Below are positions 5,611 to 26,672 of a stretch of 28,532 bases of DNA, one piece after another. A model generated the notes under the pieces. The model searched no databases, was not told the DNA's origin, and was given only the letters and a program-made list of their open reading frames with translations. Origin of the DNA: Candidatus Odinarchaeota archaeon (GTDB lineage: Archaea > Asgardarchaeota > Odinarchaeia > Odinarchaeales > Odinarchaeaceae); assembly GCA_038826135.1 (NCBI GenBank), contig JAWBON010000010.1:1-28532 (forward strand), given 5' to 3'. Both the position numbers and the translations under genes were made by a program. Position 1 is the first letter of the stretch. Every line of letters starts with the position of its first letter.

Positions 5611-6303
5611 ATGAAACTATATGATTTATATATTATTTACAGGGATGGAAGAAATATTTTTCATAAAAGTTTCTGTGAGACAGCGCTGGATGAGTCGATT
5701 ATAAGCGGATTCTTAAGCGCGCTCACAGAGTTTTCAAGAGAGGTTCTCCCCTCAGAGGGTTTGCTTAAAGTGATTGAAAAAGGCAGTATAAAGGTTATTT
5801 TCAGCCATGGGAGAAACCTTCACATGGCACTTATTAGTGATGCTGTTGATAGGAAGGAAATATTATATTTGAATAACCGGTTAATAGAGTTAACTGATAG
5901 GCTTGAAGCTCAATATAAAAGTTTATTAGATGATTGGAGTGGGGATCTATCAGAGTTTAAAGGTTTAGACGAGATTGTATCCGACTCTTTCCGTGATATT
6001 GTGAGATTAAGCCAACCACCAAATATAAAAGAACTTGCGGATAAGAGAAAAATGTATTTTTACACTGTTGACGAGGATGGGACTAACATATTCAATGCTT
6101 TCTATAAGGGTTCATGGAGTTTTACAGAATTTCTGAAAAAGTTTTCTATTCCAGATATATTAGTAACCCAGCTTCTTAGCCGGTTAAAATCAACATACTT
6201 AACCTTAGACGAGATTAAAACTGAATTAAGCGTCGACGAGGATACTCTTCTTAAGCTTTTAAGGAATCTTACTTTAAGGGGGATAATAAGTGTCTGCACA
6301 TAG
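5611..6303 (+). CDS. Longin-like domain fused to a C-terminal winged helix-turn-helix
   Basis: LYIIYRDGRNIF..ISGFLSALTEFSREV..WSGDLSEF is the Asgard longin pattern. The C-terminal LTLDEIKTELSVDEDTLLKLLRNLTLRGII is wHTH-like. Confidence 0.7.
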   Translation: MKLYDLYIIYRDGRNIFHKSFCETALDESIISGFLSALTEFSREVLPSEGLLKVIEKGSIKVIFSHGRNLHMALISDAVDRKEILYLNNRLIELTDRLEAQYKSLLDDWSGDLSEFKGLDEIVSDSFRDIVRLSQPPNIKELADKRKMYFYTVDEDGTNIFNAFYKGSWSFTEFLKKFSIPDILVTQLLSRLKSTYLTLDEIKTELSVDEDTLLKLLRNLTLRGIISVCT

Positions 6304-7420
6304 CCAGCTGCCGATGGATATTAATATATCTAAAGTTGCTAGAGGACTCACCTCGTATATTAAAAGACTCTTGATTCAAACAGCGTTGGCGGAAGGCTTC
6401 CCTGATATTTTAAATGATTATAAGAGTATTCTAGATCTCGCTAATTACACTGACACAAAGGATTTGAAGATGCTTAGGGAGCTTGTAGTTTCACTTGTAA
6501 AGCTTGGTATAATAGATCAGAAAGGGGATTTATTTAAATGGATAGGCGGCGAGATCCGGGTGACAGAGGATGAAGAATATGTTAAGCCGCTGGCTGAGCC
6601 TTGGATTACAATGTTGCAGACTTATATGAAGAAGTTCCCTGATCTGCTTAAAGGTAGAAGCCGCCTATCACTTAAAGAACCGGGTATATGGGACAGCGTC
6701 TACTCAACTCCGATATACCAGTTTATATGGTTGAACACGATTAAACAATTAAATATCACTAATGATTCGGTGATACTAGATTTAGGGTGTAAAACCGGTT
6801 GGAATACGATAAATATACTTAATAATTATGACCCTAAAAATGTGGTTGCGGTAGATGTTAACCAGGATTTTTTAAATGTAGCTGATGAAAACATATGTAA
6901 TTTCGCATTTGAGAAAAGGTTTAAGGTTACACTAATAAGACATGATTTTACTAATGAAATAGATTTAACAGGATGCTTAGGGGATGAGAAGCCGGATAAG
7001 GTGATTGTATCCTACTTGTTCCACTGGTATCCTGAAACAGATTACTTGAATATTTTAAGTAATATAAGAAAGGTTTTAGCTGAAGACGCGGAGATAGTGT
7101 TCATCCAGCCCCATATAGTTTACAGGAACCAGTCGATATTCTTTCAGCTCCCCTTATATGTGGAGGATGGTTTTAAAGGATACCCGCTGTTAGAGACTTT
7201 AGCGAACACTATTATCGCGTCAGGTTTCTCTATGCCTAAAAGAGAATACAATATTTGCCTTTACTCTAAGATGGGGGGCGAACAAACTAAACCGCTAAGG
7301 ATTTCAGCGGATCCACCTAAGTATTGTAAGATTTGCGGGGGAGAGCTTCAGGAGAATGCTTTCTTCTGCGCTTATTGCAGGAATACAGTTGATTTTAATG
7401 TTAATCTTCCCTTACTATGA
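6290..7420 (+). CDS. Class I SAM-dependent methyltransferase with N-terminal wHTH-like domain and C-terminal zinc ribbon
   Basis: Motif I VILDLGCKTG, VVAVDVNQDFL, RHDF and SYLFHW. N-terminal LRELVVSLVKLGII. C-terminal CKIC..CAYC. Overlaps the upstream gene by 14 bp. Confidence 0.8.
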   Translation: MSAHSQLPMDINISKVARGLTSYIKRLLIQTALAEGFPDILNDYKSILDLANYTDTKDLKMLRELVVSLVKLGIIDQKGDLFKWIGGEIRVTEDEEYVKPLAEPWITMLQTYMKKFPDLLKGRSRLSLKEPGIWDSVYSTPIYQFIWLNTIKQLNITNDSVILDLGCKTGWNTINILNNYDPKNVVAVDVNQDFLNVADENICNFAFEKRFKVTLIRHDFTNEIDLTGCLGDEKPDKVIVSYLFHWYPETDYLNILSNIRKVLAEDAEIVFIQPHIVYRNQSIFFQLPLYVEDGFKGYPLLETLANTIIASGFSMPKREYNICLYSKMGGEQTKPLRISADPPKYCKICGGELQENAFFCAYCRNTVDFNVNLPLL

Positions 7421-9241
7421 TTTAAGCAAAGACTCTTTAATCTTAATTGCCAGCTTATAGCTGACGCCTAATTTTTTAACCAAATTATCCGGTGACTCGC
7501 TTCGGAGGATTTCAAGATCAGGATAGTTTAAGCGAATACGCTTTTTAAGCTGTTCACCTATACCAGTAATATTGTCAAGCACTGATTCGAAAAATTGTTT
7601 AGCTCTGAGCTTCCTATGATAGTTGACAGCGAACCTGTGAGCTTCATCGCGGATATATTGAAGTATTTTTTTAAAACCAGAATCGTCTGGGAAGATGAGG
7701 GGTTCTTTAGAGAAAGCAGTGTAAACTTCTTCTCTCTCTTTAGCTAATCCAATTACAGGGATATTTAATCCAAGGTTTTTTAAAACCTCTAAAGCCGTAT
7801 TTAACTGGCCTCTACCGCCGTCAACAACTATTAAAGCAGGTATTTTATCATTCTCTAAACCTATTTTTCTAAGTCTTCTGGTAAGAACCTCCCTTAACAT
7901 ATCATAGTCGTCTTGTGCTTCAACGGTTTTAATCTTGTACATTCTATAACTTTTCTTAAACGGGTACCCGTCTAAGAATACCACTTTAGAGCCTACAGGT
8001 TGCCTGCCTCTAATATTTGAGATGTCAAAAGCCTCTATTATTAGAGGGTGTTTGTTAAAATCATAGGCGGGGAACAGTGAAGACAACTCTCTGACGGTTT
8101 CTTCAAGCCGCTTTCTATCTGATAGCTCTTTTATAAGCCTCCTCTTAAATTCAGCTGCGGTCGCTTCTCTCAGTAAACTTAAATATTCTTTATCTAGCTG
8201 TGAAAGGCATTGTGTAACTGTAACCTGTCTGTTATTTAATCCAAGTAACTTGCCTAGAAGGGACAGTAGGTTGCCATCATCACTATCTATTATTATTTTA
8301 CTAGGCGTCTCAGCTGTATTAAAATATAATCTTGTGATCAATGTTTCAAACACTTCACTATCCGTGTTAAATTCGTTAACTTTCACTTTATAGTATCGCT
8401 GGCTCGCTATCCCTTCACTGGTAACTGATAGCACCCCTACAAGGGCTTCATTATACTCTCTTACAAGTGTGATGAAGGCTATGCTCTCCCCACCGCCAAG
8501 CTTAACTTTTCTACTGTCAAGTATCTTATTCACAGCGAATAGGCGATCTCTCATTAAAGCAGCCTTCTCAAACTCTTGTCTAGAAGCAGCCTCTTCCATT
8601 TCACGCTTCAGATTCTCTATTAGAGTCTCCCCTCTACCTTTAAAGAATAATTTCATATATTCCAGCGACTTAGAGTATTCAGCTGGATCAACGTATTGGA
8701 AGCATGGGCCAGGGCATCTTCTTATACTGTATTGTAAGCACGGTCTTTTTCTACCAAGTTCGATTATCTTATTTTTACAGTTCGCAAGCGGGAAAAATGA
8801 GCGTAGATAGTTAAAGGTTCTTTTCAGATCTTCAACGTTCGCGAACGGGCCTATAAACTCAGCGTTCTGATCCTCTCCGACTTTAAGTTTTCTCACCATT
8901 AACATACGAGGATATTTCTCGGATACGGTGATCTTAACATAAGGATAGGATTTATCGTCTTTGAATGAAACGTTATATTTAGGGTCTAATTCACTTATCT
9001 TCCTCTGCTCTAAAATTAATGCCTCCACCTCGTTCGGAGTTAGAATAAAGTCTATTCTTTCAACCTCTGATATTAACTGTTTCTCCTTTCTGTCTTTGGA
9101 ATTATAGTGCTGTAACACTCTTTTCCTTATACTTTTAGCTTTACCAGTATAGATGCACTCGCCTTGTTTATCGTAAAATATATAGATTCCTGTCTTATCA
9201 GGTAACTGTTGAATATCGTTTAATAAGTTTAAGACGCCCGT
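7415..9241 (-). CDS. uvrC: Excinuclease ABC subunit C; 5' end extended from the supplied ORF (GTG 9118) to a probable ACG start at 9241
   Basis: In frame upstream of 9118 the sequence reads [30 protein letters not shown] (GIY-YIG). Downstream are EALILE, the Cys cluster ([16 protein letters not shown]), a UVR motif ([10 protein letters not shown]), the RNase H-like motifs IEAFDISN / DGGRGQ / RDEAHRFA and a HhH. The gene call is certain; the start position is inferred. Confidence 0.93.
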
Positions 9242-18636: not shown

Positions 18637-19782
18637 ATGAAGATTCAAAGCCAAGATATTTACATATTAAGCGAGTTACAAAAGAATCCTTATCAAAGCA
18701 TTAGAGCACTGGCTAAAAATATTAAAGTGAAAAAGGATAGGGTTTTCCGCTCCTTAAAAAAACTTAAAACATGTCTTGGATTGCAACACGACTACTGGGT
18801 TAACTATCCTAAGATAGGTTTAAAACCGTTCACTCTCATTGTGAAATGCCCATACCAGAAAACAGGAAGAGTGGTCGCTGTTCTCAAAAACCCTTATCTT
18901 TTAGAGCTGTTCTTCAGTGCAAGCGGTGAAGGGGTATATATACTAGCTAAATACGTATTCCCTGATAATTTTAACATGAAACCGATACTCGGTCTTATGA
19001 AAAGCTGGAATTGGATAAAGGAAAGCTATTTAACCTATGTTAAATCCGAGGGATATAATCTATCGTTCCACTATTTTAACCGTCTAAACCAGTCCTGGGT
19101 TATTAAATGGTTATACTGGGGTTTAATGATAAAAGATGTTTTAATAAATCAAGAGGCCTCCGAACTATTCCCACAAGCGAATATGATTGATTATTCAAAA
19201 AGCGGGTATGATACTCATACTATGAGAAATATAAATTTGTTAAAAGAGATTACTTCGAACCCGCAGAGTTCAATAAGCAAAATAGCTGTTTCTAATAAGC
19301 TTAAACTATCGGAAGCTTACAATATTAGAAGGTTTTCAGTAGATGAGGGGGTTCTTAAAAAATTTTATAGAGTTAACTATAAGATGACTGGTTTAAGAGA
19401 GAGAATCGCAGTTATAGTTAAGACTGCTGATTCGAACACTATGAGAAGTATTCTAAACGGATTCTTATTATTACCTGAATGTTGTTTCTACAACATTACA
19501 GGAGAGTTAGAAGGACTTATAATTTTACTTTCACTCCCCTACGGTGGGCTGGGTAAAATTCATAACATACTCTCAGACTACTTATTTGATCAGCTTGACA
19601 GTTACTGGCTTCTACCCCTATTCAAAGAGCAGAAAATTAACCACATCCCGTCGACAACACTTTTAGATGAAAATTTAAACTGGAGGCGTTTAACAATTAT
19701 CAAAGATAAAAAAATCATTTTATACGAGGACTACGCTGAAAACTTACGCCTCCCTGAACTTAAGATAGGAATACAGGGTTAA
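18637..19782 (+). CDS. Tandem (internally duplicated) Lrp/AsnC-like wHTH transcriptional regulator
   Basis: HTH 1 is DIYILSELQKNPYQSIRALAKNI; HTH 2 is NINLLKEITSNPQSSISKIAV. Each is followed by a YRVNY/YWVNYxKxGL linker and an alpha/beta domain. Confidence 0.7.
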   Translation: MKIQSQDIYILSELQKNPYQSIRALAKNIKVKKDRVFRSLKKLKTCLGLQHDYWVNYPKIGLKPFTLIVKCPYQKTGRVVAVLKNPYLLELFFSASGEGVYILAKYVFPDNFNMKPILGLMKSWNWIKESYLTYVKSEGYNLSFHYFNRLNQSWVIKWLYWGLMIKDVLINQEASELFPQANMIDYSKSGYDTHTMRNINLLKEITSNPQSSISKIAVSNKLKLSEAYNIRRFSVDEGVLKKFYRVNYKMTGLRERIAVIVKTADSNTMRSILNGFLLLPECCFYNITGELEGLIILLSLPYGGLGKIHNILSDYLFDQLDSYWLLPLFKEQKINHIPSTTLLDENLNWRRLTIIKDKKIILYEDYAENLRLPELKIGIQG

Positions 19783-21050
19783 TCTCCCTGCCCTATAAGT
19801 TTATCATCTATCATTTTTAAAGCCTGCTCTAAAGCTGTAGCCTCCACTGTTTGAAGCTCTAATCTTTGAGAAACTTCCTTGCTTAAGATATAGTTCGCCA
19901 CCGTGTCAACGAATAATTTTCGATCTTTAATAGGTAGAAGAATTATACCATAGTGTTCTGCAAGTTCCTCAGCTTTCGATTCAAATCTCGGTATGCCCGC
20001 GAGCAGTTTTATTCTACAGTCGATGTCCTGAGCTTTAACAGCGAAATTCAACACTTTATCAGCGGTGATACCGGTGGAGGATGTGAACACTTCAAGTATA
20101 ACATCCGGGTCTACTGGTAGAATCGCTTCAATCCCACCTCTCTTAAACCAGAAACCTGAGGAAAACTGATGAATCAACCCGGAGACGCCTATAATAAAAG
20201 CGGGAATTCTTGAAACCCATCCTTTTTCACCAAGCCTGTTCGCAAGCTCCTTTAACGGTATAGTGATATTCTCATATTCACCGATAAAATTCATATTCAG
20301 AGTATACGAGTAAAGCGTTTGAAAGACCGCTTGCTGAAGTTCGAAAATAGAACCACAGTCGCCACAACTATAGGTAGCTAGAGGTTCATCGAAAAATTTC
20401 AGGCAAGCTGAGCATTTAAACCATGGACCGTGCTTCTGATAGTCTACACCAAGACTTTTCAAAGCGGAATTACAGTGAGGGCATAAGAGTTCAGAGTCTT
20501 TTTTAAATTTTAGTTCAAAATCCATGTGATGACATTTGAAATGCTCAATAACCTTCCCTTTATCAAAAGCCGGAGATTGACAGTAGGGGCAAACATACTG
20601 TGCTACCACATTGTTAGAACGGCATCGGGGGCATTTAAGAGATTTAGAATAAGTAGACGCGGATAATACATTAGCCTCCACTAACTGATCGATTAAGGCT
20701 ACTGTATCAGCTGGGGAAAGCCCTACGGTTCTCTCAGCTTCCGGATACCGCACACCATACTCCTTATCAAGAATTGGTATAAGCTTCTTTATTCTTTCAT
20801 CAAGAAAGGCGGTTAATAATCTCTGGGTTTCACTTCTCTCATATAAGGCTGCTCGCTCCTCGGTAAGAGAATCCTCGGACACCGATTCCTCCAATTGCTT
20901 GTGTAAAGCTCGAATATACTCCTCTAACCTACTCTTCCATTTATTATATTGAGCTTCATCAACCTCTTTTTTAAAGTACTTATCCTCTAACTCGCTAAGC
21001 GCTTTCTCCGCCTTTAACTTCAAGTTTTCCAGTTCTTGGCGAATAGACAT
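19779..21050 (-). CDS. TackOD1-like multi-zinc-binding protein with N-terminal SHOCT-like helix pair and C-terminal degenerate restriction-endonuclease-like domain
   Basis: CPRC, CPYC, IEHFKCHH, CPHC, GVDY, CSAC, CGDC. C-terminal GVSGLIHQFS..LLAGIPRFESKAEELAEHYGI. N-terminal LEDKYFKKEVDEAQYNKWKSRL. Confidence 0.7.
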   Translation of the reverse strand: MSIRQELENLKLKAEKALSELEDKYFKKEVDEAQYNKWKSRLEEYIRALHKQLEESVSEDSLTEERAALYERSETQRLLTAFLDERIKKLIPILDKEYGVRYPEAERTVGLSPADTVALIDQLVEANVLSASTYSKSLKCPRCRSNNVVAQYVCPYCQSPAFDKGKVIEHFKCHHMDFELKFKKDSELLCPHCNSALKSLGVDYQKHGPWFKCSACLKFFDEPLATYSCGDCGSIFELQQAVFQTLYSYTLNMNFIGEYENITIPLKELANRLGEKGWVSRIPAFIIGVSGLIHQFSSGFWFKRGGIEAILPVDPDVILEVFTSSTGITADKVLNFAVKAQDIDCRIKLLAGIPRFESKAEELAEHYGIILLPIKDRKLFVDTVANYILSKEVSQRLELQTVEATALEQALKMIDDKLIGQGD

Positions 21051-21058
21051 TAAAACAC

Positions 21059-21616
21059 CTAACTTTTAACGCTCTCCTTTCTAGTTATATTTAATTGAAT
21101 AATTTTTTTCAGCAAAGTTAAAAAGGCTTGATCAACATTTTTACCTGTTTTAGCGCTTGTCTCAAAATATTCACAGCCTAGTTTTTTAGCTAGTAAACTA
21201 CACTGTTCAGAAGACACTTCACGCTGATCCTCCACATCAACCTTGTTACCGAGTAATACAACAGGTATTTTCTCACCGGAGTATTCTGTTAACTCCCTGT
21301 ACCACTCATCCACATTATGAAATGTAGTGCTTCTAGTCAAGTCGAACACGATTATAGCACCCTGAGTGCCTTTATAGTATTGTTTTCTAACAAGATCAAA
21401 TTTCTGTTGACCTGCTATATCCCATATGATCAGGGTTATCATAGTTTGGCCTAGATTAAAATCCTTAGTGTATATGTCAACTCCTAAAGTAGGTATATAA
21501 TCAGTTTTAAACTCTTTCTTAACGAATGTAAGAGTTAAACATGTTTTACCAACACCGCCATCGCCTAAAACCACCATTTTATAAACAAATTTTAAAGGAG
21601 CGCTCACTGAAATCAA
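21059..21616 (-). CDS. Rab-like small GTPase (Ras superfamily)
   Basis: G1 GDGGVGKT, G2 YIPTLGVD, G3 WDIAGQ, G4 NKVD and G5 ETSAK; Rab-like YYKGT and IVFDLT. No C-terminal Cys. Confidence 0.95.
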   Translation of the reverse strand: MISVSAPLKFVYKMVVLGDGGVGKTCLTLTFVKKEFKTDYIPTLGVDIYTKDFNLGQTMITLIIWDIAGQQKFDLVRKQYYKGTQGAIIVFDLTRSTTFHNVDEWYRELTEYSGEKIPVVLLGNKVDVEDQREVSSEQCSLLAKKLGCEYFETSAKTGKNVDQAFLTLLKKIIQLNITRKESVKS

Positions 21617-21725
21617 CCCGTTATTGCGGTTTAACGTAAATAATAAAATTTATCTTATTAGCCTATTTATTAGTCTATTATAATATATAAGTATTATAAA
21701 ATATATTCGAGGAAACGGTGTTAAA

Positions 21726-22817
21726 ATGATTAACGAGGTTAATATATATCATATAACAGGTAAACGCTTATTCAGCAGCAGCTTCACTGATAAAAGAGAA
21801 AGCCAAACACTAGAAGAGAATATAATAACAGCTATTGTGAAGAAAACCAGTGAAGCTGAGAGTAAAATCGCTTATTTAACAATCGGCACCACTAAAATAA
21901 TTTTTAGAATAGAAGGCGAGATAGCCAGCGTAATTTTTTCAGATAAAGATGATATAGAAACTGTGTTAGAAGATTACGCTTATAGAATAATTAAACGTTA
22001 TAGGTTAAGATACGGAGATTCACTGGAGGGGGTCCCAGAGGATGAAATGGAAAACTTCGCATCTATTTTAAAAAGGCTTATCACATCACCTACAATAGCT
22101 CTTAAAATCGTTATGATAGGTGAACCTAACACTGGTAAAACTTCCATATTAAAAATTCTAAGCAACGAGGAGCCTAGTAAAATATATATACCGTCAACAG
22201 ATGCGAGCGGAAATACTTTTTCAGATATAACAACAGAGGCTGTGGTTAACCTCTGGGATTTACCAGGTAGAGAAGAGCACCGCTGGTTATGGGAAAGGCA
22301 CACTATAGGCTGCGATATCATTCTAATAGTAACCGATTCAACCACTCCGAACCTATTATCCACGATGGAGACATGGGGATTATTTAAAGAGCATGTTGAT
22401 GCGAAAGTGGCGGTGGTAGGTCTTGCTAATATGCAGGATAAAAAAGAAGCCTTAGACCCAAATATTGTAAGCAATATTTTAGGTTTCAAAACATACCCTA
22501 TAATATCTAAGAGCTTAGAGAATAGAAAAGATATTTTAAATGTTTTTAAAGAAATCTGTGAAAACTATATTCTCCACGGTTTAGAAGAGAAAACCAGCGA
22601 GGTTAACCTGGATAAAAACCAGATATTAGAAAATATTACATCGATAAAAAGCGGATTAGAGCGTTTAATACCACCAAACCATCCTATATTAATAAGCATC
22701 AACGGATGGATTGAACGAATTAAATCAAAGAGTGAACTAAGCGATGAAGAATTTAACGAATTAGATAAAGCGGTTAAAAACTGGACTGCTAAATTAGAGG
22801 AGCTAATAAAAGGCTAA
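21726..22817 (+). CDS. Longin-like domain fused to an Arf-like small GTPase with a C-terminal helical extension
   Basis: The N-terminal ~120 aa have longin topology (VNIYHITGKRLFSSSF..). G1 GEPNTGKTS, G3 WDLPGR, Arf-like WERHTIGCDIILIVTDS, G4 ANMQD. Confidence 0.75.
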   Translation: MINEVNIYHITGKRLFSSSFTDKRESQTLEENIITAIVKKTSEAESKIAYLTIGTTKIIFRIEGEIASVIFSDKDDIETVLEDYAYRIIKRYRLRYGDSLEGVPEDEMENFASILKRLITSPTIALKIVMIGEPNTGKTSILKILSNEEPSKIYIPSTDASGNTFSDITTEAVVNLWDLPGREEHRWLWERHTIGCDIILIVTDSTTPNLLSTMETWGLFKEHVDAKVAVVGLANMQDKKEALDPNIVSNILGFKTYPIISKSLENRKDILNVFKEICENYILHGLEEKTSEVNLDKNQILENITSIKSGLERLIPPNHPILISINGWIERIKSKSELSDEEFNELDKAVKNWTAKLEELIKG

Positions 22818-23539
22818 AATGAGGTTTTAACGCTTAGATCAAAATATCTGTTGATTAAATCATATACGTTAAGAAAGTTTTTAAGATTTTCAACCCTGTA
22901 TAATCCACTAGGATGACTTATAGTCACCTCTATTATTATCTTCCCACGCCTCCGCATAAGCTCGATATCTACAACGTCCTCTGTAGCATACTCTTTAAAT
23001 GTTAAAGGTTTATGACCCGCAACTCTTACATGGGAGATATCTAATTTATCAGATAAAGCCACAATCGAAGAGTGTGCTGTGCTGGGTAAAACCTTTCGAG
23101 GGGAGTGCTCGGCTATAGCATGACAGATAATACTTTTAATAAGATTCCCGTTATCAAAATCCTTGAAATATTTATTCAAAATATTGAATCCGATTATAGC
23201 ACCGGCTAAAGCGTGCTCCTCCCTATTTACAAAGTTACCTATATCATGCATGTAACTTGCGATTAGAAGCGCGAGATTCATAGATTCTTTATCCAGTAAT
23301 TTATAAACTTCAGCTCTTAGATTAGTTCCTTGAACAAGTTTTATAAGTTCAGCGCAAATACACATCGCTCTAAGAGCGTGAGAGTAATCATGAGGGGTTT
23401 CCAATTCAATCCTTGACATTAAATCGCCGATCTGGTATATTTCTCTAATTTCAGAGTCATTTAGCACCCGGTCTAAGAGAACAGCTCCCTGTTTAGATAG
23501 AAGCTTGCGAAAAACATTTTTGTCAAACTCGAAGTTCAA
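22814..23539 (-). CDS. HD-domain metal-dependent phosphohydrolase
   Basis: HDYSH, MHDIGN, EH, HAIAEH and DKLD; TTG start after GGTGG. Confidence 0.85.
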   Translation of the reverse strand: MNFEFDKNVFRKLLSKQGAVLLDRVLNDSEIREIYQIGDLMSRIELETPHDYSHALRAMCICAELIKLVQGTNLRAEVYKLLDKESMNLALLIASYMHDIGNFVNREEHALAGAIIGFNILNKYFKDFDNGNLIKSIICHAIAEHSPRKVLPSTAHSSIVALSDKLDISHVRVAGHKPLTFKEYATEDVVDIELMRRRGKIIIEVTISHPSGLYRVENLKNFLNVYDLINRYFDLSVKTSF

Positions 23540-23654
23540 ATTTCCACCGGCCTATGCCGCCAAGGTTTTCCAATACTATTTTATTTACGGTTTTATAATA
23601 ATATAAATATTAACAACCAGTCAATATTATATTTATATAATCGGTGGCGGTTTA

Positions 23655-25862
23655 TTGGCGGTTGAATTATTATTATCAATTGCTTTCAACATAATCCCTA
23701 TAGGCGTAGCGTTAATACCTTATCTTGCTTTCAGAAAAAAAAGAGTGTGGGGTTCTTTCTATCTGAGATTACTAATATGCTTCTCGTTTTTCTGGGTTTT
23801 CTACGATCTGGTGCCAGCGGTCTTATTCCAAGTAAGCGGTAAAACATCTACAACACTCCTGGTTGCATCCACTCCCCTCGATGTTCTGGGGGTTTTAGGA
23901 TATTATCTAACTATGACCACGGATATATTCTTCAACATATTTAATTTTCTAATCAGTTCCTGGCCTTTCATATTCGTAGGCGCGCCTATGATAGCTGTAG
24001 TGATTATAGCATTACATTTACGGGGTGAAAAAGGCGGTGTTAGAGAGAAGTTTTTCAAGGTGGGTTTCGAGTTTAAGGATAACCCGCTTAAAAATATTAG
24101 GGAACGGCTTGAAAATAATTCCTGGGGCGATGAAAAAGCCCTTATAAAACTGCTGATAGTTTTACTACCGTTATCACTTTATCTGTTAACCGGAGTGTTA
24201 TCAGCGATAGGCGGTGCAACGGATACATTAGCACCATCATCTGAGCTAGGATGGTTCATAGAAGTCTTCATAGTGTATTTACTTGTACCGATAACCGCTG
24301 TACACCTACTGTACTACAGTAAAGCATCCTATGAGGGAAGATTCTTCGGAGATAAGATAAGAAGATCTGTATTCTACTATTTAATATCTATAGGAGCTGT
24401 TCTATCAGGGTTAAGTATCATACTCTTCATACAGCAGAATCCGGCTTCAATATCCACGATAATATATTTTGTCTCATATTATGCGATGAGTACTATAGTA
24501 TTCGCCGCCTTCCTCCCAGTTTACGAGGCGGTTTCAGCTTTTCTACTAGTTAAAATATCAAATGCCATAAAAAAAGAGGATTTTAAAAACGAGTCCCGAA
24601 AAAGCTTTATCGACGAAGTTAAAAGCTACACTGTTGTAATAGGTCTCCTCCTATTCTTCATAATATTAGCTTTAAACTTAGCGCTCTCAATCCTCTGGAC
24701 GGTGTCGACGGGTGCTGGAAGCTTATTCTTCAATCAATTCCTTTTCGAAAATCCTGTTGGCCCCAATTTTATTGAGCAAATATCACTGGAGTTTAACATA
24801 ATTTTAAGCTTCACCCTGATCTTCATAGGATTAATCGGATGGAGCGCCGCATCATCTTACTTAACGCGGAGCGCACCCTCTAAAATGTACTTGTCTATAA
24901 CGATCTCATTCATACTTTCATTTTTAATAACAATAATTATACTAAACATAGATATCCCATTCATATATGGGAGAAGCGCATACTGGGTTGTACCAGCCCC
25001 AGCCTCGATAAACATACAGGAATATATAATCTTCACTCCGAGAATGGCTCTCCTCCAAGTTCCTAGCGGAACATTATTCCGTTTCGCGGCGTATCCCTTC
25101 GACATTGTAAAAGCGTTATTTTCAATAATTATTCTAAGCACCATAATATATTATCGCGGAGTTCCCTTCAAAACCAGATTGGAAGAGGCTGGAACAAGGA
25201 ACATAGGTGTAGTTTACTCTAAGATATCATTCACTCCAAGCTTTAAATCTATTAAAAAATTAACCTACCTTTTAACAGCGAGTGAAAATACCGTGTTAAA
25301 CACATCTGACCCTGATGTTTTAAACTTATATAATATTCTTAAAGAAGGTTTCTACATATTCCCGGAATTAGTTTCAAAAATAGGCGGAGAGGAAGCGAAC
25401 TTATACTTGAATCTCCGGAGGCTATCAGTATATAATTGTTTAAGCATTTATCAAGCAGAGTTCAACTTCATATTTTATAAGGCTGTGTTAAAAAGCTTCT
25501 ATATAGTCAGTCATGACGGTCGCAGTATATTCAGCTACTCTTTTTCAGAGGAGCTTACCACAGAGCCTGTTCTAGTAGCTGGTATGCTCTCAGCTATTTC
25601 ATCATTTGTAAGAGAAACCACTAAGAGCCGTGAATTATTGAGGAGTATAGATCACGGTGACACTACACTTTTAGTAGAATATGGAAAATACTCTTTCGCT
25701 GCTCTTCTCGCAGACAGAGAGACAACAGAGCTGCGAGGAAGACTTCAAAAATATATCGTTGAATTCGAGAAAACATATGAGGACACCCTTGCAAATTGGA
25801 ACGGGGATGTTGAACCATTTGAAAAAGAGGCGGCGAGAGTGGCGGAGCTCTTTACAGAGTAG
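23655..25862 (+). CDS. Polytopic membrane protein (about 11-13 TM) with cytoplasmic wHTH-like segment and C-terminal longin-like domain
   Basis: Hydrophobic segments run through residue ~500. They are followed by FPELVSKIGGEEANLYLNLRRL and FYIVSHDGRSIF..VAGMLSAISSFVRE..SIDHGD..WNGDVEPF. Confidence 0.75.
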   Translation: MAVELLLSIAFNIIPIGVALIPYLAFRKKRVWGSFYLRLLICFSFFWVFYDLVPAVLFQVSGKTSTTLLVASTPLDVLGVLGYYLTMTTDIFFNIFNFLISSWPFIFVGAPMIAVVIIALHLRGEKGGVREKFFKVGFEFKDNPLKNIRERLENNSWGDEKALIKLLIVLLPLSLYLLTGVLSAIGGATDTLAPSSELGWFIEVFIVYLLVPITAVHLLYYSKASYEGRFFGDKIRRSVFYYLISIGAVLSGLSIILFIQQNPASISTIIYFVSYYAMSTIVFAAFLPVYEAVSAFLLVKISNAIKKEDFKNESRKSFIDEVKSYTVVIGLLLFFIILALNLALSILWTVSTGAGSLFFNQFLFENPVGPNFIEQISLEFNIILSFTLIFIGLIGWSAASSYLTRSAPSKMYLSITISFILSFLITIIILNIDIPFIYGRSAYWVVPAPASINIQEYIIFTPRMALLQVPSGTLFRFAAYPFDIVKALFSIIILSTIIYYRGVPFKTRLEEAGTRNIGVVYSKISFTPSFKSIKKLTYLLTASENTVLNTSDPDVLNLYNILKEGFYIFPELVSKIGGEEANLYLNLRRLSVYNCLSIYQAEFNFIFYKAVLKSFYIVSHDGRSIFSYSFSEELTTEPVLVAGMLSAISSFVRETTKSRELLRSIDHGDTTLLVEYGKYSFAALLADRETTELRGRLQKYIVEFEKTYEDTLANWNGDVEPFEKEAARVAELFTE

Positions 25863-25946
25863 CGGAGCAGCTTAACTGTGTTTTAGAAGTGAAATGAATA
25901 ACTTTTAATATCTCATAATATGGTAATATAATTAGGTGATAGCCTC

Positions 25947-26672
25947 TTGAAATATAATAAGTTAGAGGCTGAAAACACTTTAAAAGAACACTGGAAAGTT
26001 ATATTAGCGGTGGTCGTATCCGATTTAATCTTAACAGGAGTCATACTATTATTCGGTAACATTAACGTGTTTTTAGCAATAAACAGAGGATTACAAATAC
26101 CTCAGTTAGACCCCGCTATAGCACTAATATCCAATTTCGGTGTGATAATACTATTAGCGGGCGGGGTTTTAATATTTACATTAGACTATAAGTATAAGTC
26201 TATCGGAGCGTTAACACTTATGTTTATCGGGTTCTGGCTTGCAATATTCTTAGGTTACACTCTTAAAACTTACTTTGATATATTAAGACCATACTACCAA
26301 GTGGCGCACACCAGGACTTTAATATACACCACACCTGATTTAGGAGGCTCATTCCCTTCATCTCACGCGTTAATAGCATTCTTCTTATGGACTATAATAA
26401 CGGTAAAAGCTAAAAAATACAGTATACCAACATTGATAGCCGCCAGCCTCATCTCGTTTGGAAGAATATATGTAGGCGTCCACTACCCTCTAGATGTTAC
26501 AGTTGGCATTCTTATAGGCATCAGTATAGGCGTATGCTTACTAGCGGTTGAACTGATTGCTAAGAAACTAAACAGTAGGCCGAGCGGTGGAGGTGGAGGT
26601 AACAAACTGTTTTTAACTGTTACCCCTACCTTTTACACTGTAATTAAAGAACAGGCGTGTTTTTACCTATGA
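25947..26672 (+). CDS. PAP2-family (phosphatidic acid phosphatase type 2) membrane phosphatase
   Basis: C1 KTYFDILRP, C2 FPSSH and C3 GRIYVGVHYPLDV; about 6 TM. Confidence 0.92.
   Translation: MKYNKLEAENTLKEHWKVILAVVVSDLILTGVILLFGNINVFLAINRGLQIPQLDPAIALISNFGVIILLAGGVLIFTLDYKYKSIGALTLMFIGFWLAIFLGYTLKTYFDILRPYYQVAHTRTLIYTTPDLGGSFPSSHALIAFFLWTIITVKAKKYSIPTLIAASLISFGRIYVGVHYPLDVTVGILIGISIGVCLLAVELIAKKLNSRPSGGGGGNKLFLTVTPTFYTVIKEQACFYL
26591..26634 (+). other. Stem-loop (14-bp imperfect stem, 13-nt loop) followed by a T-run at the PAP2/AsnB-like convergent junction
   Basis: AGGTGGAGGTAACA (26591-26604) pairs with TGTTACCCCTACCT (26618-26631) with one mismatch and one G-U pair, and runs into TTTT. 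Confidence 0.4.

Follow-up and report, generated by a model that had tools for sequence, protein, structure and literature searches.

A putative Rab-like GTPase and TackOD1 switch-plus-output operon in a six-gene stretch of an Odinarchaeial genome

The DNA analysed here is a stretch of 28,532 nucleotides (contig C10, hereafter the window) from the genome of a Candidatus Odinarchaeota archaeon (1.26 Mb, 93% complete), and the same DNA is present in hot-spring metagenomes. Within the window, six consecutive open reading frames fill positions 19779-26672 exactly and encode, in this order, a TackOD1 protein, a Rab-like small GTPase, a longin-Arf-like GTPase, an HD-domain phosphohydrolase, a membrane protein with a C-terminal longin domain and a PAP2 lipid-phosphate phosphatase. 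A previous reading of this DNA, made from the sequence alone (the sequence-only reading), had assigned these domains, all of which were confirmed by Pfam matches, predicted folds or profile comparison, and had joined the six products in a single membrane-to-GTPase pathway. The Rab-like and TackOD1 genes run in the same direction, with the Rab-like gene upstream and a gap of 8 bp, and the Rab-like and longin-Arf genes diverge from a spacer of 109 bp. The longin-Arf and HD genes converge with an overlap of 4 bp, the HD and membrane-longin genes diverge from a spacer of 115 bp, and the PAP2 gene follows the membrane-longin gene on the same strand, 84 bp downstream. The alternating strands and this spacing thus predict four transcription units. 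Short contigs of two libraries labelled metatranscriptomic (probably DNA) match scattered pieces of the region.

The Rab-like small GTPase (21059..21616, reverse strand; 185 aa; Pfam Ras, 1.9e-58) presents all five G motifs: G1 GDGGVGKT, the switch I Thr, G3 WDIAGQ, G4 NKVD and G5 SAK. Consistent with the earlier proposal that the protein is unprenylated, its C-terminus (...RKESVKS) is devoid of cysteine; since the C-terminal Cys prenylation motif is missing, we refer to the protein as Rab-like rather than as Rab. It is one of about 8 Rab-like genes in the genome, which also harbors three longin-GTPase genes.

The gene downstream encodes the TackOD1 protein (19779..21050, reverse strand; 423 aa), which matches Pfam PF18551 (1.4e-33) with 116.5 bits against a cut-off of 32 and is composed, from its N-terminus, of a coiled coil, the TackOD1 domain, a nuclease-fold domain and a long terminal helix. 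The TackOD1 domain (20298..20843, reverse strand; residues 70-251) starts with a helix-turn-helix (HTH)-like segment that is followed by CxxC zinc ribbons, and in the alignment of 10 homologues 11 Cys are invariant and His170 is nearly so. This pattern agrees with the published description of TackOD1 (PF18551) as a domain of ~190 aa with 11 conserved Cys (five CxxC) and an HxxC motif (Galperin et al. 2018, PMC5847659), and identifies the domain as a member of that family. TackOD1 has been reported earlier in "Ca. Odinarchaeota". In Thaumarchaeota, it is the output domain of response regulators with a receiver (REC) domain (PMC5847659) and, as arCOG06883, it has been reported in loci for type IV pili, in which ATPases of the KaiC family are predicted to be regulators (PMC4858521).

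The C-terminal 172 residues of the TackOD1 protein were predicted by AlphaFold 2 (AF2) to contain a PD-(D/E)xK nuclease core, with a predicted local distance difference test (pLDDT) value of 84. The best structural match of this restriction-endonuclease-like fold domain (19866..20297, reverse strand; residues 252 to about 395) is AF1548 (1y88), with Z 11.3 over 116 residues and a root-mean-square deviation (rmsd) of 4.0; other matches comprise Can2 (9.8), NucS (9.3), and Bax1 and several type II restriction endonucleases (Z 8-9), and Foldseek yields 5.3e-4. The canonical D...(D/E)xK motif is absent, with strand 2 carrying His for Asp and strand 3 reading Glu-Val-Phe without Lys, and a conserved Lys sits in the helix after strand 3. 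The output of the TackOD1 protein is probably nucleic-acid-directed.

The distribution of TackOD1 was analyzed by searching for PF18551 in 251 Asgard genomes, 83 of which carry the domain (below, G and L numbers denote compared genomes and loci, G000 being the genome of the window, f1 its Odinarchaeia family and f2 the sister family). A Rab-like gene directly adjoins TackOD1 in four families, namely f1, f5 (G009), f13 (G017) and f28 (G239). In G239 the order is reversed, with TackOD1 upstream of the Rab-like gene and a 4-bp overlap, and the remaining neighbours of the pair differ between the f1, G009, G017 and G239 loci. The association of the two genes is hence retained beyond general colinearity, and the gaps of at most 8 bp or overlaps between them suggest that they are co-transcribed. 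Furthermore, an Arf-like GTPase recurs next to Rab/TackOD1 genes in f19 and f28. The G239 locus reads KaiC > Arf-like >< Rab < TackOD1, and four f19 genomes present a longin-Arf-like gene beside TackOD1; a 20-kb f19 island in G040 (L025, G040:C1:3325000-3344999) gathers three tandem longin-Arf genes, one Rag-like and one Rab-like gene, two TackOD1 genes, two KaiC-like ATPases and two longin-containing proteins. Fusions of longin and TackOD1 domains, detected with a longin profile, occur in two families, at L030 6623-7756 (G009:C13, E 9e-17; the second TackOD1 protein of G009) and at L029 6934-8289 (G016:C25, f12, E 5e-7). Together, adjacency and fusion thus tie TackOD1 to small-GTPase machinery. 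By eye, the N-terminal domains of TackOD1 proteins from f6, f19 and f28, like that of the Arf-like protein in G239, resemble uDENN or longin domains, but their matches to the longin profiles were not significant (E 0.005-0.4).

Other genes were also observed at these loci. A KaiC-like ATPase, with 38% identity between loci, is located beside Arf/Rab/TackOD1 genes at L087 7529-10916 (G239:C150) and L025 8989-13841, and a link between KaiC, GTPase and TackOD1 may exist. At L088 5970-8681 (G009) and L089 4800-7211 (G017), the Rab-TackOD1 pair is preceded, at a distance of 2-2.3 kb, by a gene for a P-type cation ATPase (34% identity between the two), which was judged to be, probably, residual synteny.

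Prediction of a complex between the Rab-like protein (alignment of 7 rows) and the TackOD1 protein (alignment of 10 rows) gave a score of 0.54 (runs of 0.44, 0.66 and 0.54), compared to 0.00 for the best of three controls, with the runs agreeing in at least 84% of contacts and a partner pLDDT of at least 82. The score falls in a weak band: the mark used for such predictions is passed by 58 of 80 solved complexes and 2 of 110 mismatched pairs, and a passing score of 0.60 or less was obtained for just 7 of those 80 complexes and for both of the passing mismatches. With gene order as a prior, this prediction makes a direct complex between the two proteins modestly more likely.

The relationship of this pair to the other four genes was addressed through gene order. 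The sequence-only reading had proposed that the longin of the membrane protein and the longin fused to the GTPase form a heterodimer acting as a membrane-tethered guanine nucleotide exchange factor (GEF) for the Rab-like GTPase, that TackOD1 provides the output and that the HD and PAP2 proteins are modulators. As such a pathway would have it, the six genes are contiguous in three genomes of the same genus and in two further Odinarchaeial contigs, in which the membrane-longin proteins show 66% and, at L084, 55% identity. The flanking ABC, Nre, HTH, AsnS and H+-PPase genes are also colinear in those close Odinarchaeia, and the contiguity of the six genes is therefore attributable to general colinearity. 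At the more distant locus L083 (44% identity for the membrane-longin, 41% for the longin-Arf and 49% for the HD protein), the four genes HD(+)/longin-Arf(-)/Rab(+)/TackOD1(+) are still arranged in the same way relative to one another, and this block is located ~6.6 kb from the membrane-longin and PAP2 genes, across the housekeeping genes AsnS, H+-PPase and GalT. The breakpoints coincide with the block borders, and the split falls exactly between the HD and membrane-longin genes. In f2, sampled through three genomes (78-91% complete), membrane-longin and PAP2 genes are still adjacent, and TackOD1, the HD orthologue and this type of longin-Arf protein were not found. The order of the six-gene set is consequently not kept beyond general colinearity. 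Of the earlier proposal, then, the functional link from the Rab-like protein to TackOD1 is upheld by recurrent adjacency, by the fusions and by the weak complex score, and the grouping of all six genes in one system is not. The two halves lie within ~8 kb of each other at L083, which a single pathway would accommodate; against it, the strands alternate and four transcription units are predicted, five other families possess the membrane-longin without the rest of the set, orthologues of the HD protein were found in Odinarchaeia only, and the adjacency of PAP2 to the membrane-longin was seen within the order only. We regard a single six-gene pathway as very improbable.

Taken together, these data incline us, on balance, to the reading that the 6.9-kb stretch comprises separate adjacent modules, with a nucleic-acid-directed switch-plus-output operon of the Rab-like and TackOD1 genes as its core. 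The core of the first module would be a two-gene operon, Rab-like GTPase first and TackOD1 second, in which the unprenylated Rab-like protein, depending on whether it carries GTP or GDP, would control, through direct binding, the putative nucleic-acid-directed output of the TackOD1 protein. A parallel may be drawn with thaumarchaeal response regulators, in which a phosphorylated receiver domain controls the same TackOD1 output. The second module would consist of the membrane protein, with its cytoplasmic longin tail, and the downstream PAP2 gene.

Several observations, beyond the weak band of the complex score, weigh against this reading. The absence of the canonical D...(D/E)xK residues makes the nuclease or output activity uncertain. 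No GTPase was found within 1.5 kb of TackOD1 at 15 f12 loci, nor at the f18 and f26 loci, and no GTPase is adjacent at the two loci sampled in f6, the family that holds most TackOD1 genes. In a Rab tree of 51 rows, the backbone of which is unresolved, the TackOD1-adjacent Rab-like genes are not one clade and the starred branches call for no fewer than three label changes; the reciprocal best-hit margins of these genes are just 3-4 bits. The tree and these thin margins therefore do not demonstrate an ancient conserved Rab-TackOD1 pair. As for the separation of the modules, the two lie within ~8 kb of each other in all Odinarchaeia sampled, which is compatible with a looser functional link.

Some of these points are shared by a different explanation, according to which there is no coupling and independent genes are simply packed in a 1.3-Mb genome rich in small GTPases and longins, their adjacencies being residual synteny. 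The about 8 Rab-like and three longin-GTPase genes of G000 fit this explanation, as does the lack of an orthology signal in the Rab tree. It is also in line with the published finding that the GTPase genes of Asgard archaea do not, as a rule, share operons with their regulators (Tran et al. 2024, PMC10933270), gene order rarely revealing the partners of these GTPases (PMC10933270). Chance packing does not, however, account well for a Rab-TackOD1 adjacency that persists, also in reversed order, where other neighbours differ, for the short gaps or overlaps indicating co-transcription, for longin-TackOD1 fusions that tie the domain to GTPase platforms independently, or for a complex score above that of all controls. 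We therefore consider the absence of any coupling unlikely.

The membrane protein of the second module (23655..25862, forward strand; 735 aa; without Pfam family) presents about 11 membrane segments in a hydropathy scan, and its tail (residues 501-735, 235 residues) is predicted to be cytoplasmic by the positive-inside rule. The last 146 residues were folded together with nine orthologues, and the resulting model (pLDDT 77) corroborates that the protein ends in a longin domain (25485..25859, forward strand; residues about 611-735), with a beta-beta-alpha-beta-beta-beta-alpha-alpha topology and longins as its nearest structures. An exhaustive structural search, with which Foldseek agrees, ranked CPLANE Fuzzy first (Z 14.3), followed by Sec22 (13.8), VAMP7 (13.6), and then AP mu/sigma and TRAPPC4; roadblocks ranked below longins (Z 9-10.5). 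Sequence-profile searches of the PDB returned nothing significant for the longin domain and, for the full protein, weak winged HTH matches between the membrane part and the longin (E 0.11-0.84). The ESM Atlas provided sub-0.9 longin/roadblock leads for both longin domains of the stretch and no lead for the membrane part.

In public records, orthologues of the membrane-longin protein are annotated only as hypothetical proteins. The family is present in six Asgard families, mostly with unrelated neighbours, and the full-length orthologues of f8, f9, f13 and f15 (27-33% identity) share no neighbours. On these sequence comparisons, the membrane-longin protein is a phylum-wide orphan family, the cytoplasmic longin tail of which could plausibly serve as a GTPase-docking platform for a partner not given by gene order. 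Elsewhere in the window, a 230-aa protein (5611-6303, forward strand) carries an N-terminal longin that is the closest paralogue of the membrane-longin tail in the genome (E 2.9e-13), followed by a weak HTH-like match, and its gene overlaps the next gene. At L083, a 213-aa Roadblock/LC7 protein (6861-7502, reverse strand) is encoded 2.5 kb upstream of the membrane-longin gene, a position from which it is absent in the window.

The PAP2 gene (25947..26672, forward strand; Pfam PAP2, 1.5e-18) encodes intact motifs of the KxxxxxxRP / PSGH / SRxxxxxHxxxD type (KTYFDILRP, PSSH and GRIYVGVHYPLD). The protein also matches the NCBIfam undecaprenyl-diphosphatase SepP (2.1e-21) with a score of 76.7, below the cut-off of 250. 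Its reading frame and the convergent asparagine-synthase gene share 29 bp (26644-26672). The last ~30 residues of the protein, which include a run of five Gly, are without counterpart in orthologues, which measure 210-217 aa; where the protein really ends may vary from lineage to lineage.

The second GTPase of the stretch, the longin-Arf-like protein (21726..22817, forward strand; 363 aa), is composed of a longin (residues 1-112), a G domain (113-285) and a helical tail (286-363), in which a PPNHP motif is conserved. Pfam detects Arf at residues 113-260 (2.8e-14) and yields no match for the first 112 residues. The presence of a longin in this region, as claimed before, was nevertheless substantiated: a profile of the N-terminal domain (1-125), aligned with 14 paralogues and orthologues, matches the membrane-longin profile with an hhalign probability of 98.4% (E 4e-15), and among the 15 members six match PF19036 Fuz_longin_1 (Fuz/Mon1/HPS1) and five match PF01217 (AP sigma longin). 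The protein departs from Arf in that the G domain is preceded by a 112-residue longin and not by an N-terminal amphipathic (myristoylated) helix, and in that it has neither the catalytic Gln in G3 nor NKxD in G4. The G domain (22062-22580, forward strand) reads DLPGR in G3, with Arg for the catalytic Gln, and NMQD in G4, with Met for Lys, a combination that is confined to the window and close Odinarchaeial relatives. The L083 orthologue (41% identity) reads DMPGK and NKQD, and the G012 orthologue DLPGQ and NKQD. All Odinarchaeial orthologues present DLPGR or DMPGK and hence are without the catalytic Gln, and the motifs suggest that the longin-Arf protein may be a slow GTPase or a pseudo-GTPase.

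The comparison of both longins bears on the heterodimer at the center of the single-pathway proposal. In favour of the proposal, both are genuine longins of one Asgard family, and the structural neighbours of the membrane longin include those of the Rab GEFs Mon1-Ccz1, TRAPP and BLOC-3 (Z 9.6-11.4). The data do not, however, support the membrane longin as the obligate partner of the GTPase-fused longin. The two do not co-occur across lineages, the former being present in six families and this type of longin-Arf protein in f1 and f8 only, and they are separated at L083. Furthermore, no longin of the genome is further diverged from the membrane longin than that of this longin-Arf protein; four other longins of the genome are among the detectable paralogues of the membrane longin, and this one is not. 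These phyletic patterns, together with the L083 rearrangement, argue against obligate longin-longin pairing.

The remaining gene encodes the HD-domain phosphohydrolase (22814..23539, reverse strand; 241 aa; Pfam HD, 7.4e-08), in which the H...HD...D residues are present and the Pfam score is 33.1 bits against a cut-off of 22. The arrangement at L083 raises the alternative that HD, longin-Arf, Rab-like and TackOD1 form one functional unit, in which the longin-Arf protein would act, by means of its longin, as a platform or as a regulator (GEF or GTPase-activating protein, GAP) of the Rab-like protein and the HD protein would process a nucleotide signal. The internal arrangement of these four genes is kept as their surroundings shift, although a single rearrangement on a single contig makes for thin evidence. 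The 109-bp spacer from which the Rab-like and longin-Arf genes diverge is compatible with such a unit, as is the loss of the catalytic Gln in all Odinarchaeial longin-Arf orthologues and of the G4 Lys in close relatives. Arf-like GTPases with an N-terminal domain also occur near Rab/TackOD1 genes in G239 (f28) and f19, but in G239 that domain was not detected as a longin. Moreover, the nearest longin-Arf orthologue outside Odinarchaeia, in G012, has none of these neighbours, and in G009 and G017 neither an Arf-like GTPase gene nor an HD gene adjoins the Rab-TackOD1 pair. A four-gene unit thus appears possible but rather doubtful to us. Under the two-module reading, the product of the divergently transcribed longin-Arf gene, without the catalytic Gln, and the HD hydrolase would probably be lineage-specific accessories in Odinarchaeia, for instance a regulator or platform.

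The combination of a nuclease fold, an HD protein and GTPases also led us to consider a defence island. This was dropped because PADLOC, run on the six proteins, gave no defence-system match except trivial P-loop and HD hits, base composition is even along the whole window, and no mobile-element gene is found among the annotated genes of the region.

The targets and roles of the Rab-, Arf- and Rag-like GTPases of Asgard archaea are a question of eukaryogenesis, and a GTPase gene repeatedly located beside one uncharacterised output protein, or coupled to it in translation, offers a concrete pair for biochemistry. An output directed at nucleic acids, rather than at membrane remodelling, would caution against calling Asgard Rab-like GTPases trafficking proteins. 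The membrane-longin family provides a candidate membrane anchor for GTPase platforms, and treating the six genes as neighbours, not as one machine, guards against an over-interpreted claim of a "proto receptor-GEF-GTPase-effector" system. We tentatively entertain, as an idea less probable than not being so, a more specific version in which the Rab-like protein is the dedicated input switch of a DNA-directed TackOD1/PD-(D/E)xK effector and the membrane-longin protein is a GTPase docking receptor predating the eukaryotic Ragulator- or SR-type anchors. If a dedicated Rab-TackOD1 switch did exist, no matched pair of GTPase and effector would precede it in Asgard archaea, and a Ras-superfamily switch would have replaced the two-component receiver domain on the same output module.

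Several known systems resemble parts of this stretch. Fusions of longins to GTPases have already been published, as has the view that modules of longin or roadblock type regulate GTPases in Asgard archaea (Liu et al. bioRxiv 10.1101/2020.10.19.343400; PMC10933270), and the 363-aa longin-Arf protein shares the architecture of that multi-copy family; it differs in being Odinarchaeia-centred and in having a 75-aa helical tail, DLPGR for DxxGQ and NMQD for NKxD. The eukaryotic longin-heterodimer Rab GEFs (Mon1-Ccz1, the TRAPP core, BLOC-3 and CPLANE) have the longin fold in common with the membrane protein (Fuzzy at Z 14.3; Mon1/Ccz1, TRAPPC4 and BLOC-3 at Z 9.6-11.4). In contrast to these GEFs, no tri-longin architecture is present here, one longin resides on a protein with about 11 membrane segments and the other on a GTPase, and their genes do not co-occur across lineages. 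MglA-MglB and SRbeta-SRX likewise pair a small GTPase with a roadblock- or longin-fold partner (SRX at Z 10.2-10.7, MglB at Z 9-10.5), without membership at the sequence level, and the anchor is on the longin protein here and on the GTPase in SRbeta.

The Rab-TackOD1 pairing appears to be undescribed in the literature searched, where the name TackOD1 is rare. The Asgard LAMTOR1-like/Rab-like/DENN operon (Liu et al.) is similarly a conserved cluster in which a Rab-like GTPase is combined with a candidate for its regulator or effector; where that operon has DENN and roadblock proteins, the partner here is a TackOD1 protein with a nuclease fold, and no DENN domain was detected. The REC-TackOD1 regulators of Thaumarchaeota (PMC5847659) also couple the PF18551 output domain to a small molecular switch. 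In the Odinarchaeial pair, that switch is a separate Rab-like gene rather than a fused receiver, and the output protein carries an additional coiled coil and PD-(D/E)xK-fold domain.

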